UHGV virus genome: UHGV-0360402
Length of the DNA stretch: 41,827 nucleotides
Strand: one strand, 5' to 3'
Source: a virus
Numbering within the stretch: position 1 is the first letter of the stretch; each line of letters begins with the position of its first letter. This document shows positions 6,328 to 10,194 of this stretch, piece by piece. Position numbers and translations under genes: made by a program. Under the pieces are notes generated by a model. It did not search any database. It saw only the letters and a list, made by a program, of their open reading frames with translations, and had not been told where the DNA came from.

Positions 6328-6585
6328 ATGCAGCAGTATCACTATCCACTGGAAGACGGATTTACCGAAAGGATTCACACGCCGGGAGGCGTCAGGTCAC
6401 TGGTGGAGGGATCGCACTTGATGAAATTACTCCGGGATCTCGATAAGGATGGATTTAATGTCGATGGCCCACTTGCCGAACTGACTGCACTGATTAACTA
6501 CGTCACCAGCTCACAGATGTCTATGCGGGATCTGCAAACACATCTCGACTATTGTGCCGAACAATTACGAAAACAAACCCGGTAA
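6328..6585 (+). CDS. Small SOS-controlled protein (85 aa), stand-alone copy of the C-terminal module shared by the two antirepressor genes; candidate antirepressor
   Basis: GGAGA RBS; LexA box in promoter; alignable to C-termini of 7736-8392 and 9256-10194 products (LM-LL-DG-AELT-RD-QTH). Confidence 0.7.
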   Translation: MQQYHYPLEDGFTERIHTPGGVRSLVEGSHLMKLLRDLDKDGFNVDGPLAELTALINYVTSSQMSMRDLQTHLDYCAEQLRKQTR

Positions 6586-6591
6586 ATTTAA

Positions 6592-6609
6592 AGGCCGCAA
6601 GAGCGGCCT
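6592..6609. terminator. Hairpin between convergent genes (aggccgc-aaga-gcggcct)
   Basis: GC stem directly after stop of 6328-6585; overlaps 3' end of minus-strand gene. Confidence 0.5.
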
Positions 6610-7336
6610 ATCGTTTCGCTTTGTGCTCATCCCAGCACGTTTTGCACCATGCCATTAAGCCGTCCGCATTTTGATTATTAGGGTAAAAGCTGGTTCGTTT
6701 TCTGCGGACATTACAAATTGGGCACCACTTCATATGGCGTGTATTCTTTGGGCCATCGAGACACCTTGCACACCATTTAGTCAATCCATCTGGATTTTTT
6801 GACGATTTCCTGAATTTTTCATATGGAAGGTTTATTCTGCATCGCAAGCACTGCTTGCTACCACTTGAAACTCTGTTAGCTGATTCTTCTTTTGGCGGCG
6901 ATACAGAAGGTATTCTTGCTGGCTCTGATATTGCCTGAGGTGCTTTTTTAGATGACTGAGACGATATGTCATCACCAGGGAATCTTCCATGATATGCCGG
7001 ACGCGTTGACACTCCAGGTGGAATCTCAGCTGTAAACGGCTTTGGCTGAATCAGTTGCCTCTCTTTTGCTAACTCCTGCTGTTTATAATATGTCTGGATT
7101 ACCGCACTATCATAAGCAGGAGGTGCGGAAATATTAGGCGCATTACCTCCAGTTTTTTGAAACTGAGTAGAGGTGTGTTCTATCACCTGTGTACGATTAA
7201 TCGTTATCTCCCCATCTTCGGTCTTTATCGTTTTGTTATGATTAACGACCGTACGATCAGAGATCTTAGTCTTGTTCTGGTTGATAACGTAAATAATCAC
7301 CGCAACCACACCAACAACTATCCAGAAAACTTCCAT
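6608..7336 (-). CDS. Membrane-anchored protein with two C-terminal CxxC...WCxxC zinc-ribbon repeats (242 aa)
   Basis: GAGGA RBS; N-terminal TM helix; tandem Cys motifs CLRC...WCARC and CPIC...WCKTC; operator at 7357-7371 just upstream. Confidence 0.65.
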   Translation of the reverse strand: MEVFWIVVGVVAVIIYVINQNKTKISDRTVVNHNKTIKTEDGEITINRTQVIEHTSTQFQKTGGNAPNISAPPAYDSAVIQTYYKQQELAKERQLIQPKPFTAEIPPGVSTRPAYHGRFPGDDISSQSSKKAPQAISEPARIPSVSPPKEESANRVSSGSKQCLRCRINLPYEKFRKSSKNPDGLTKWCARCLDGPKNTRHMKWCPICNVRRKRTSFYPNNQNADGLMAWCKTCWDEHKAKR

Positions 7337-7356
7337 TGCTTTTCCTCACAATAACA

Positions 7357-7371
7357 TTACCTTAAAGGTAA
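7357..7371. promoter_or_regulatory. Operator-like palindrome TTACCttaaaGGTAA
   Basis: Perfect half-sites; between divergent genes 6608-7336 and 7736-8392. Confidence 0.6.
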
Positions 7372-7449
7372 TATCTTGCTTTCAGGTGATCAAGCGTTAA
7401 ACGCAATCAACCAAATACGGTTGATTTTAATATTTCTTCGCGTTTATCA

Positions 7450-7464
7450 TTACCTTTGCGGTAA
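7450..7464. promoter_or_regulatory. Operator-like palindrome TTACCtttgcGGTAA
   Basis: Perfect half-sites; abuts candidate promoter TTACAT-18-TAGTAA at 7467-7496. Confidence 0.6.
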
Positions 7465-7497
7465 ATTTACATTGCACTCCTCTTGTGCCATAGTAAT

Positions 7498-7577
7498 CGG
7501 GCACTGGCAAAATCCAGTGCCGGGATTGGTCTCCCGGATTACTAAGTGGCGCATACCACGCCAGACGTGGTTTTTTT
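7498..7577 (+). ncRNA. Candidate small RNA or terminated leader upstream of antA-like gene
   Basis: Promoter-like elements 7467-7496; two stable hairpins (gcactgg/ccagtgc; cggga/tcccg) then terminator hairpin ccacg/cgtgg plus T7; the overlapping 110-aa ORF lacks an RBS. Confidence 0.4.
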
Positions 7578-7735
7578 ATGCGTATAGCACAGTCATGCCA
7601 GAATTATGGTGGGCTGAATGGGGGTCCGAAAGGACGCCGGTACCACTTAGGCCGGTAAGACCAACTCCGTTCAGTTCACCACCATCTGATTGGTCTCAGC
7701 GGTGGTGATGTAATTCGCTAAGTGGAGACGCCATC

Positions 7736-8479: not shown

Positions 8480-8491
8480 AGGAGGCGCGAT

Positions 8492-8659
8492 ATGACAGCG
8501 TTGAAAAATCGTACTCAGCACAATGAACAAGCCAAGCAATGCTGGGATGTCATTGGAAAAGTTATGCTTGGCCGCGCAAGCAAAGAGCGCGACAAGGATA
8601 TGGTTTACCAGACAGGAACATCTTTCAGCGACTTCAAGGCGGCATTTCGCTCCAAATAG
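8492..8659 (+). CDS. Small hypothetical protein (55 aa), first gene of IR-flanked cassette
   Basis: AAGGAGG RBS; below ORF-track size cut-off; GC and codon use phage-like (CGN arginines). Confidence 0.55.
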   Translation: MTALKNRTQHNEQAKQCWDVIGKVMLGRASKERDKDMVYQTGTSFSDFKAAFRSK

Positions 8660-8679
8660 AAGCACATTAGGAGTTTGTC

Positions 8680-9120
8680 TTGAAGTTTAACATTAGAATA
8701 TCTAATAGTTTTCTAAATGGGGAAAGCAACACCCCTTTCGCTGTAGACGGACCTTTCCTTACTGACGATGAAATAAAAATCATACAAAGGTTTTTAGAAG
8801 ATGTTGCCAATGGAAGGGCGCTTGTTGGAAAAAACAAGCCATCGTGGGTTGATGATAACCATGATAAAATTCCCGGCTCAGACAATTATGAGCAAGAGAA
8901 TTATTGGCATTATCATTGTGGGCCAACATGGTATCCAAACACATTTAAGAATTATACCATTAACTTAAATTTCAACCCTGGCGGAATGCATTCTAATGAA
9001 TGCATTCATTATGCAAAAAATGATAATGAAATTGTCGTTGTTGGATTTTCAAGAGAACACATACCTTTCCTTTCATCAGATGGAAACGACAATCCGCTTT
9101 TTTATGATGAAGAAGAATAG
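8680..9120 (+). CDS. Hypothetical AT-rich moron protein (146 aa); C-terminal motif faintly RelE/ParE-like
   Basis: TTG start with AGGAG RBS 6 nt upstream; about 30% GC; all four Arg codons AGA/AGG; strong terminator follows. Confidence 0.6.
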   Translation: MKFNIRISNSFLNGESNTPFAVDGPFLTDDEIKIIQRFLEDVANGRALVGKNKPSWVDDNHDKIPGSDNYEQENYWHYHCGPTWYPNTFKNYTINLNFNPGGMHSNECIHYAKNDNEIVVVGFSREHIPFLSSDGNDNPLFYDEEE

Positions 9121-9140
9121 CCCGCGGCGCGGGCTTTTTT
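9119..9140 (+). terminator. Rho-independent terminator
   Basis: gcccgc/gcgggc stem plus T6. Confidence 0.8.
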
Positions 9141-9180
9141 GTGTCTGCGGATTCCCACCCAGGCGGCGGTGGCATTCGTT

Positions 9181-9205
9181 AAAAACAAGGCCGCGAAAGC
9201 GGCCT
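9181..9205 (-). terminator. Rho-independent terminator for antirepressor gene
   Basis: aggccgc-gaaa-gcggcct stem; T-run on minus strand. Confidence 0.7.
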
Positions 9206-9217
9206 GTGACATGTCAC
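9206..9217. repeat. 12-bp palindrome GTGACATGTCAC (copy 1 of 3)
   Basis: Exact copies also at 27730 and 30181. Confidence 0.8.
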
Positions 9218-9231
9218 GATAGTTCAGTTTT

Positions 9232-9486
9232 GCACATCCCTGTGCCGCCGTTCTGTCAGAAGAACCCTGCCTTGTCGTTGATGTACTCCGCGTGCGTCTG
9301 GATATCACGCAGGCATTTGCTCACACCAACGATGTAGCAGAACATGGTTGTCAGCTCCGCCGCCGCGCCCGATACATCATGCCCGTCTTCCTGTAACTGG
9401 TTCAGCAGATTCATCAGCAGTGAGTGCTCCGTCAGGCCGAGAACACCAGACGGAGAATGAATCAGGCTGCGGTAGCCGGGCTTCAG
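9232..9486. repeat. Inverted repeat, right arm (pairs with 8163-8416)
   Basis: Reverse complement about 96% identical to left arm. Confidence 0.85.
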
Positions 9487-10194
9487 CGGATAACCATAAC
9501 ATTTTGTCTGTGTTTTAATTGCCTCACGAAGCGCATCTAACATCTTGACTGCCACTTCATCATTCTCTGATGCAGATCCAGCAGGGAGATACTCCCCTTC
9601 AAGCGGAACCCGAGCAACAAGAGACAACGCTTCGGCGAATTGATCTTCATCAATTTCTTTGTACGAACAGCCAAAATGAGATTTCAGTGACGACCACATG
9701 GTGATCATCGCCTTAGCCTGTTTTTCTTTTGGCAGAGACTGACCGCGACTCATGACGAGTTGTTTAATGGCTTCCTGCTGTTCAGTGGTGATTTTACCCG
9801 GCAACGCCTTTTTAGCTTTGCGTGGGTTAACTACATGGCCTTTAGTCCAGTAATCGTAGAGCACATCGTCACACTCTTCCTGATACTGGATTACCTTGTC
9901 GCGGATTTCAGGGCGTACTTTGTTTGGACTGATGCTGTTCAACCAAGCTGCCAATTTTCGTAAAGCCATACAAATCATGGCTTGCACCCCACCGGCAGAA
10001 GGTATGGTGATTTCCACCATACCCTTCGAGAAGCGTTGAGAAATCTTCTTATGTTGAGATTTCCAGTCTAGCCCCATTCCCTCAACGATAGGTTTCATTG
10101 GGGTATACGGTTCACCGTTGTGATTGACAACATAAAGCTCTGCGCCGTGGAATGGCACGTTGATAGTAGATACCGCTGTTGCTATACTCGTCAT
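9256..10194 (-). CDS. Antirepressor (P22 Ant-like N-terminal region fused to shared C-terminal module; 312 aa)
   Basis: ATG 10194; downstream of Arc-like gene as in P22 immI; N-terminal pattern typical of phage antirepressor N-domains. Confidence 0.75.
   Translation of the reverse strand: MTSIATAVSTINVPFHGAELYVVNHNGEPYTPMKPIVEGMGLDWKSQHKKISQRFSKGMVEITIPSAGGVQAMICMALRKLAAWLNSISPNKVRPEIRDKVIQYQEECDDVLYDYWTKGHVVNPRKAKKALPGKITTEQQEAIKQLVMSRGQSLPKEKQAKAMITMWSSLKSHFGCSYKEIDEDQFAEALSLVARVPLEGEYLPAGSASENDEVAVKMLDALREAIKTQTKCYGYPLKPGYRSLIHSPSGVLGLTEHSLLMNLLNQLQEDGHDVSGAAAELTTMFCYIVGVSKCLRDIQTHAEYINDKAGFF
10160..10188 (+). promoter_or_regulatory. Near-consensus sigma70 promoter TTGATA-17-TATACT reading antisense into the ant 5' region
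   Basis: -35 at 10160-10165, -10 at 10183-10188; inside the first codons of ant on the opposite strand. Confidence 0.55.

Follow-up and report, generated by a model that had tools for sequence, protein, structure and literature searches.

Large phage antirepressors such as those of P22, P1 and the Stx phages have been known for decades, and to our knowledge it is still unclear which part of them recognises the repressor and what role their very widespread N-domains of the Bro-N, AntA and P22_AR_N class play. Iyer, Koonin and Aravind are said to have described in 2002 that phage regulators of the KilA-N/Bro-N class are domain-shuffled, joining such N-domains to variable C-terminal domains. At the small end of the scale, the Ant protein of Salmonella phage SPC32H is reportedly a small helical tetramer that breaks up the DNA-bound tetramer of its repressor, Rep, as attributed to Kim et al. 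in 2016. Here, we describe an antirepressor locus in UHGV virus genome UHGV-0360402, a stretch of 41,827 nucleotides (nt) that is referred to below, at its full length, as the window. Three genes between positions 6,328 and 10,194 of the window end in one shared C-terminal module related to SPC32H Ant, which stands alone in one gene and is fused to two different N-terminal domains in the others. Based on sequence comparison, we put at roughly 65% the probability that all three proteins inactivate the resident Rep repressor through this shared domain.

For SPC32H, whose Ant-Rep system is represented by PDB entries 5D50 and 5D4Z, a citing paper (PMC9638917) describes Ant as tetrameric, binding two dimers of Rep and disrupting the Rep tetramer that binds DNA, and a review (PMC7380047) states that Ant proteins of this kind are made after LexA cleavage. 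The window resembles SPC32H in having an 87% identical ortholog of its Ant (gene 1), a LexA box in the same place, a Rep homolog and palindromes around rep. It differs in that SPC32H has the stand-alone gene only, without isrK, C4 and sar, whereas the window adds two fused, diverged copies and its Rep is 42% identical. Gene 1 corresponds with its 85 amino acids (aa) to the stand-alone form of the SPC32H-type Ant of about 86 aa, while genes 2 and 3 are domain-level relatives and not members of that type.

Two proteins called anti-repressors, ORF4 of phage ZX5 and p23 of phage phiV10, come from the same phage group with an identical Rep, and resemble gene 2 in an identical C-terminal stretch of 80 aa (ZX5) or in the isrK/C4 type of leader (phiV10). 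Unlike gene 2, they carry Bro-N instead of AntA, and a frameshift breaks the phiV10 Bro-N::module gene (phiV10 positions 19551-20230) into p23 and p22, leaving phiV10 probably without a functional fusion. The ZX5 paper (PMC9782041) does not mention SPC32H, and the C-terminus of ORF4 is not linked there to SPC32H Ant. More broadly, the window shares with the KilA-N/Bro-N-class regulators and with the Ant of Phi24B the pairing of N-domains of this class with variable C-terminal partners; unlike in those cases, the C-terminal partner in the window has a solved repressor complex, which makes a specificity hypothesis concrete.

The window itself is an epsilon15/phiV10-like Escherichia coli prophage, with TL-2011b, phiv142-3 and phiV10 as its top DNA matches. 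Its principal features are as follows.

6328-6585, plus strand: gene 1, stand-alone Ant (type A), ortholog of SPC32H Ant, 85 aa; matches 5D50_E and phrog_450
7736-8392, plus strand: gene 2, AntA N-domain followed by the type B module, 218 aa; module at about residues 137-218
9256-10194, minus strand: gene 3, P22_AR_N, a middle region and the type B module, 312 aa; module at about residues 231-312
8159-8416, plus strand: inverted-repeat arm 1, module coding sequence and 24 nt of 3' flank
9232-9489, minus strand: inverted-repeat arm 2, module coding sequence and 24 nt of 3' flank
36084-36668, plus strand: Rep, the prophage repressor and presumed target of the module, 194 aa; matches 5D50_A at E 4e-42

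That three open reading frames (ORFs) at these positions share one C-terminal unit had been proposed in a first-pass annotation made from the letters of the sequence, and this is borne out by the ORF listing, by alignment and by the match of all three proteins to 5D50_E. The C-termini of genes 2 and 3 align with the entire 85-aa protein, with 33 invariant columns, and the module, which had been put at about 75 aa, is more accurately about 77-82 aa long, or about 95 aa if a preceding conserved 'PAIxEAxK' stretch is counted. In local tblastn comparisons the stand-alone type A and the fused type B modules are 41-46% identical over 72-78 aa (E 1e-13 to 1e-17). Chain E of 5D50, the Rep-Ant complex of SPC32H, is deposited as 'Anti-repressor protein' and is matched by gene 1 at E 1.4e-46 (residues 2-84), by gene 2 at E 4.6e-14 (residues 137-213) and by gene 3 at E 1.3e-13; among solved structures, it is the only one that the 85-aa protein matches. 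The three-way likeness is thus far beyond chance, with all three copies matching one solved chain, and because the window Rep is homologous to 5D50_A, the resident repressor belongs to the module's known partner family. Pfam holds no model for the shared C-terminus or the 85-aa protein, and NCBIfam gave nothing useful for any of ten proteins searched.

The earlier description of the fused copies as near-identical and oppositely oriented, with the stand-alone copy diverged, agrees with the repeat arms, which are 258 nt long, identical at 247 of 258 positions (95.7%) and continue for 24 nt after the stop codon of either gene. Of the 11 differences between the fused copies, 10 are synonymous, and purifying selection acts strongly on the type B module from end to end. 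The paralogs within a genome (95.7% identity in the window, 95.3% in TL-2011b) are closer to each other than orthologs are between genomes (89-90%), a sign that the inverted arms have undergone gene conversion or arose by recent duplications that were independent of one another. Hybrid A/B stand-alone proteins also exist, P0012 being one example. An AlphaFold2 monomer model of gene 2, built on a 13-row alignment, was too poor for fold comparison (mean predicted local distance difference test score 52.8, predicted template modelling score 0.31), as would be expected if the module were an obligate oligomer.

The same N-terminal domains occur elsewhere with a different C-terminus. Residues 22-92 of gene 2 are AntA (PF08346, Pfam, E 4e-26) and residues 12-121 of gene 3 are P22_AR_N (PF10547, Pfam, E 2.5e-45), while P22_AR_C (PF10548) has no Pfam match in gene 3. 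The Ant of CUS-3, a P22-like phage, matches gene 3 with about 97% identity as far as about residue 203; past that point the two are unrelated, and CUS-3 Ant has P22_AR_C at 207-279. Likewise, the Ant of the lambdoid Stx phage Stx2a_WGPS6 is about 96% identical to residues 1-110 of gene 2 and then continues into P22_AR_C. P22-like and lambdoid carriers of P22_AR_C have CI/C2-type repressors. Since one and the same N-domain is joined to different C-terminal domains in phages with different repressor families, the simplest reading of the swaps points to the C-terminal domain as the part that sets repressor specificity. In total, AntA, P22_AR_N, Bro-N, Phage_pRha and ORF6N were found as N-terminal partners of the module, which invariably stands C-terminal to them. 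A related case is the Ant of Phi24B, whose likeness to P22 Ant is confined to the last 104 residues (82% identity; Fogg et al., PMC3064807). The stronger proposal, that the module is a portable, Rep-family-specific warhead which has been grafted on at least three carriers within one genome and replaces P22_AR_C in two large ones, seems to us evenly poised.

By tblastn against the phage collection the module was found in 35 phage records, all epsilon15-like and from Escherichia, Salmonella, Klebsiella and Enterobacter. The epsilon15-like records with a Rep homolog come from these four genera too, each of which has as many of them as of module records. An exhaustive profile search of 1.84 billion representative proteins yielded 61 module representatives, mostly stand-alone and of 80-130 aa, and in every longer protein the module was C-terminal. 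A first protein search with the 82-aa module gave 19 short proteins only, and a contig profile search with the module alignment found two loci only, in Scandinavium and Citrobacter; the architectures came from tblastn, from PHROGs and from the exhaustive search of representatives. Because the module is strictly confined to Rep-carrying epsilon15-like phages, an action on co-resident prophages is less likely.

Within the epsilon15-like group the stand-alone type A gene is universal. Type B fusions are present in phiV10, TL-2011b, ZX5, phiv142-3, Tyrion, Klebsiella phages and prophages of Citrobacter and Scandinavium, and absent from the Salmonella phages, PAS61, BUCT554 and BUCT711. The P22_AR_N fusion, that is the third copy, occurs in the window, in TL-2011b and in a minority of E. 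coli genomes: among 5,426 complete E. coli genomes, the AntA::module junction was found in 104 and the P22_AR_N::module junction in 36, and an arrangement covering at least 80% of positions 6200-10600 in four. A 216-aa AntA::module protein is very common in E. coli, in epsilon15-like prophages at guaA, adjoining int, where its gene, at 9870-10651 in the contexts L011, L012 and L013, sits behind an RNA of the sRNA-Xcc1 family (RF02221) in place of isrK/C4; the AntA::P22_AR_C gene of Stx2a_WGPS6 likewise has an RNA of the RF02221 type upstream, at 1065-1153 of L015. The idea that the 216-aa proteins reside in lambdoid prophages was rejected, as the three contexts read were epsilon15-like prophages at guaA with a 194-aa Rep.

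On the reading that we favour, the fused type B copies would act on the resident Rep as SPC32H Ant does on its own Rep, with the C-terminal module providing repressor-family specificity and the N-domains and upstream cassettes serving as interchangeable carriers. The phages phiV10, ZX5, phiv142-3 and PAS61 have the window's Rep without a single difference (100% identity). In ZX5, the Bro-N fusion ORF4 also ends in the same 80 aa as gene 2. Overexpression of ORF4 lowered the number of lysogens from 1e9 to 1e6 (about 1000-fold) and rep transcription by 75% (PMC9782041). The proposal of the first-pass annotation, a common repressor-targeting unit wired to several signals, is sustained as regards homology to an Ant solved in complex with Rep and as regards the distinct control cassettes; the binding of type B to Rep is a part that we infer, as are the identity of the protein that binds the palindrome discussed below and the temporal logic of the locus.

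Several observations weigh against this reading. Contact of the type B module with Rep is proposed across an identity of about 41-46% to type A, and the ZX5 experiment used a full-length fusion tagged with glutathione S-transferase, which does not assign the effect to either domain (PMC9782041). The type A protein is 87% identical to that encoded at 19682-19930 in SPC32H, although the Rep encoded there at 33748-34335 is only 42% identical to the window Rep, which is unexpected for a cognate pair and means that module and Rep do not simply co-vary. There are also phages with the identical Rep and type A alone, such as PAS61, so that the fusions are accessory. As to the control circuits, the assignment of the palindrome TTACC-N5-GGTAA to Rep is drawn solely from position and enrichment, and the score of the sar RNA beside gene 3 barely passes its threshold (45.2 against 43 bits).

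Four other explanations jointly hold a sizeable minority share of the probability. The one that survives best, unlikely as it is, takes the module in the fusions to be an oligomerisation scaffold only and lets the activity, be it antirepression or something else, reside in the N-domains, which belong to the KilA-N/Bro-N class and are predicted to bind DNA. This explanation would fit the tetrameric state given for SPC32H Ant in PMC9638917, the constant position of the module C-terminal to domains of one functional class, and the good conservation of these N-domains across unrelated phages. A scaffold need not, however, track the repressor family, yet the N-domains carry P22_AR_C elsewhere and the module occurs only in Rep phages; the purifying selection along the whole module also speaks against a scaffold. 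In SPC32H, moreover, the stand-alone Ant reportedly suffices for antirepression, as Kim and Ryu are said to have found in 2013, which counts against the same explanation.

A somewhat smaller chance is given to type B being aimed at the repressors of heteroimmune prophages or of superinfecting relatives, leaving type A alone to act on the resident Rep. The modest identity between types A and B would agree with this, as would the classical action of P22-type immI cassettes on infection and the crosstalk of trans-acting antirepressors in Salmonella (Lemire et al. 2011, as cited in PMC7380047). Yet the ZX5 fusion, with an identical type B module, affects a phage with an identical Rep, type B diverges in step with Rep (95/76/54% against 100/78/45%), and neither the tblastn search of phages nor the search of 1.84 billion representative proteins found the module family outside epsilon15-like elements.

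It is improbable that the fusions are not antirepressors themselves and instead modulate the stand-alone Ant through mixed tetramers, as threshold setters or in a dominant-negative manner. The family is tetrameric according to PMC9638917, the hybrid A/B proteins show that the halves are structurally compatible, and the nearly identical modules of genes 2 and 3 should allow those two to co-assemble; co-assembly of A with B is nevertheless uncertain at their level of identity, and overexpression of the ZX5 fusion favoured the lytic outcome rather than blocking it (PMC9782041). Finally, a third copy that is just a recent and functionally irrelevant recombinant of a P22-type ant with the resident fusion gene would account for the sharp mosaic joints and for the rarity of the full arrangement (four of 5,426 genomes), but it is very improbable, given that the gene 3 frame is intact with 10 of 11 differences synonymous and that the P22_AR_N::module junction is shared by TL-2011b and by 36 complete E. 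coli genomes, with arc, mnt and sar still in place.

If the shared module does act on Rep, its three copies would be brought into play by different inputs, and one element common to the region is the palindrome TTACC-N5-GGTAA, of which the window holds 13 copies against 0.83 expected.

6237, 7357, 7450, 8465, 26694, 29884, 29902, 33645, 33707, 35966, 36014, 36726 and 36788: TTACC-N5-GGTAA sites

Pairs of these sites bracket rep, with 35966 and 36014 on one side and 36726 and 36788 on the other. SPC32H has 18 sites against 0.65 expected, clustered as in the window around rep and in the ant/tailspike spacer. As the palindrome is enriched, clustered around rep and similarly distributed in SPC32H, it is most likely the operator of Rep itself. 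The half-sites are kept across genera although Rep there is 42-78% identical, and some sites, for instance 26694 and 29884/29902 near the packaging genes, may mean that the palindrome governs far more than early promoters.

Gene 1 and its surroundings include the following features.

6291-6306, plus strand: perfect LexA box CTGTATAAATATACAG, 22 nt 5' of the gene 1 start
6237-6251: Rep-operator-like palindrome TTACCTTTCAGGTGA with one mismatch, in the tailspike/ant intergenic region 5' of gene 1
6592-6609: GC-rich terminator-like hairpin between the convergent gene 1 and 242-aa gene
6608-7336, minus strand: 242-aa gene without the module, phrog_6762 at E 6e-150, divergent from the isrK promoter

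The gene 1 protein is 86.7% identical to SPC32H Ant, and the proposed LexA input is confirmed by the perfect box, which is kept in relatives: a CTGT-N8-ACAG box also lies 5' of the stand-alone ant in SPC32H, TL-2011b, phiV10, Tyrion and the relatives L007 and L008. No such box was found near gene 2 or gene 3. A Rep-operator-like site 54-55 nt from the LexA box is present in SPC32H and the relatives L006, L007 and L008 as well. Gene 1 would accordingly receive SOS input through a LexA-repressed promoter, an input that has reportedly been demonstrated experimentally for ant in SPC32H. The neighbouring 242-aa protein has a Cys-rich C-terminal region with weak endonuclease VII/Lar-like matches; its gene lies between ant and isrK in the window, is an apparent pseudogene in TL-2011b and is absent from phiV10, where isrK follows ant directly.

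Gene 2 lies behind a leader that encodes two RNAs.

7357-7371: Rep-operator palindrome TTACCTTAAAGGTAA, at -144 from isrK +1
7450-7464: Rep-operator palindrome TTACCTTTGCGGTAA, at -51 from isrK +1, abutting the -35 of the isrK promoter
7466-7494: isrK promoter-like site TTTACA-17-CATAGT, from a promoter scan
7501-7577, plus strand: IsrK-family small RNA, RF01394, 67.7 bits against a gathering threshold of 50, with its own terminator at 7555-7577
7526 and 7542, plus strand: IsrK motifs a1 (UUGGUCU) and b1 (CUAAGUGG)
7602-7686, plus strand: C4-family antisense RNA, RF01695, 61.2 bits against a gathering threshold of 45
7643 and 7658, plus strand: C4 motifs b' (CCACUUAG) and a' (AGACCAA)
7690-7696 and 7718-7725, plus strand: C4 target sites a2 (UUGGUCU) and b2 (CUAAGUGG), b2 overlapping the gene 2 Shine-Dalgarno sequence

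The first-pass annotation had named a TTACC-GGTAA operator as the input of gene 2. The operator is there, and a perfect palindrome stands at -51 of isrK (-48 in phiV10) in seven of the seven genomes compared, but with 13 sites in the window, among them those around rep, it is no private operator of gene 2, whose distinctive input is the leader with IsrK and C4. Exact-motif mapping placed the complements of both C4 motifs once inside IsrK and once just 5' of gene 2. Across the seven genomes each motif has three allelic sets; IsrK, C4 and target match within each, with compensatory changes in a1/a'/a2 and b1/b'/b2, and the only exception is one mismatch in the IsrK of Tyrion. These co-varying sets look like immI-type RNA immunity specificities within the epsilon15-like group. 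Leader pairing was judged by this mapping and by covariation across genomes in place of duplex energies, the global duplex energies of C4 and IsrK against the leader not exceeding those of shuffled sequences (38 and 68 of 300 shuffles, respectively, reached the observed value). The genes for isrK and C4 go with the fusion gene in each of the six relatives in which such a gene occurs, and SPC32H lacks both.

From the end of the C4 match (7686) to the ATG of gene 2 (7736) there are 49 nt, which leave no room for an icd gene, and none is present; a 37-aa ORF lies at 7595-7708, and no ORF is conserved in frame or sequence among the six relatives. In lacking icd the leader departs from the immI of P1 and P7, with which, and with CI/seqA/seqC of P4, it shares a C4-family RNA made from the transcript of its target and two motifs with complements up- and downstream; as between P1 and P7, the allelic motif sets co-vary between genomes. 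Further differences from P1/P7 are that b2 lies over the Shine-Dalgarno sequence of the antirepressor itself, that a Rep operator is placed at the promoter, and that the epsilon15-like antirepressor consists of AntA or Bro-N and the module and is not of the P1 Ant type. The Gifsy-1 isrK-orf45-anrP region is similar in having IsrK with a terminator (leaky in Gifsy-1), a C4-like RNA (the stable STnc1160 in Gifsy-1) and an antirepressor gene; in Gifsy-1, IsrK acting in trans turns on the translation of AnrP, the antirepressor encoded downstream (Hershko-Shalev et al. 2016, PMC4825925). No conserved upstream ORF coupled to gene 2 stands out in the window, the 37-aa ORF not being kept in relatives. 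Unlike Gifsy-1, the window belongs to a podovirus with a Rep-type repressor.

We propose that the promoter abutted by the Rep operator drives IsrK, then C4, then gene 2, that C4 masks the gene 2 ribosome-binding site, and that IsrK carries decoy copies of the C4 targets. Gene 2 would then be transcribed only when Rep occupancy falls or before Rep accumulates, and translated only when C4 is titrated. In this way it would work as a feed-forward or commitment step, and other signals may feed into it by way of IsrK.

Gene 3 is embedded in a set of elements of the P22 immI type.

10196-10263, plus strand: sar antisense RNA, RF00262, 45.2 bits against a gathering threshold of 43, complementary to the arc-ant spacer
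10267-10434, minus strand: arc-like gene, first in the arc-ant operon, 55 aa from the ATG at 10434
10498-10470, minus strand: arc-ant promoter-like site TTGACA-17-GACAAT, strong in the promoter scan
10525-10986, plus strand: mnt-like divergent repressor gene, PF03869 at E 1.2e-14, with an Arc/Mnt ribbon-helix-helix N-domain

An Arc-like input had been suggested for gene 3; an arc-like gene is indeed present, though the suggestion was incomplete, with mnt and sar found as well. The arc-like gene matches phrog_228 ('Arc-like repressor') weakly (E 3e-5) and its TL-2011b ortholog is annotated as an Arc-like repressor, a promoter-like site for sar was found at 10160-10188 by the promoter scan, and sar is also present in TL-2011b. 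The mnt-like gene probably starts at the ATG of residue 11, from which phrog_1388 aligns. Between the arc-ant promoter and mnt, at 10446-10513, there are palindromes with a CACGGTG/CCACCGTGG core that are candidate Mnt/Arc operators; we take them to resemble the core of the P22 mnt operator. Neither a TTACC-N5-GGTAA site nor a LexA box was found near gene 3. The likeness to P22 immI thus extends to P22_AR_N, the divergent mnt-like gene, the arc-like first gene and the sar RNA, and it ends with gene 3 having the epsilon15-type module in place of P22_AR_C, in a phage that is not P22-like and whose repressor is unrelated. Gene 3 would be governed by this P22-type immI set (mnt, arc, sar), independently of LexA and Rep, and would typically act transiently on infection.

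Some neighbouring features complete the locus.

8465-8479: Rep-operator palindrome 5' of the 55-aa/146-aa gene pair
8492-9120, plus strand: gene pair between the repeat arms, 55 aa (8492-8659, phrog_8607) and 146 aa (8680-9120, phrog_5954)

TL-2011b has a YafO-family toxin cassette at the position of this pair, so the slot exchanges cargo. Farther away, at 27031-27107 on the plus strand, the window has a tRNA-Arg gene (anticodon TCT) that is also found in SPC32H, phiV10 and TL-2011b.

Every component of the locus is of a known kind, and the fusion genes are already annotated as anti-repressors and covered end to end by the PHROG families phrog_377 and phrog_245. In the literature searched, we found no statement that the C-termini of the fusions are the SPC32H Ant domain or that they replace P22_AR_C on two carriers, nor one of three classical control cassettes converging on one domain within a 4-kb locus. 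In practical terms, phrog_450, the family of the stand-alone proteins, still bears the label 'unknown function', and the domain has no model in Pfam or NCBIfam. Two N-domains, each with either P22_AR_C or the epsilon15 Ant module, form a natural 2x2 swap, and because one of these C-terminal partners has a crystal structure in complex with a repressor, the question of specificity is directly testable. If our reading is true, the C-domains of large phage antirepressors would be their repressor-recognition parts, and some other role, independent of the repressor, would fall to the widespread Bro-N, AntA, P22_AR_N, Rha and ORF6N N-domains. One prophage here combines three textbook antirepressor control circuits, and for induction it would act as an OR gate over SOS, its own Rep status with RNA signals, and the timing of infection; the combination bears on the timing of induction of phiV10-like prophages, which occur in E. 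coli O157 and other pathogenic strains.

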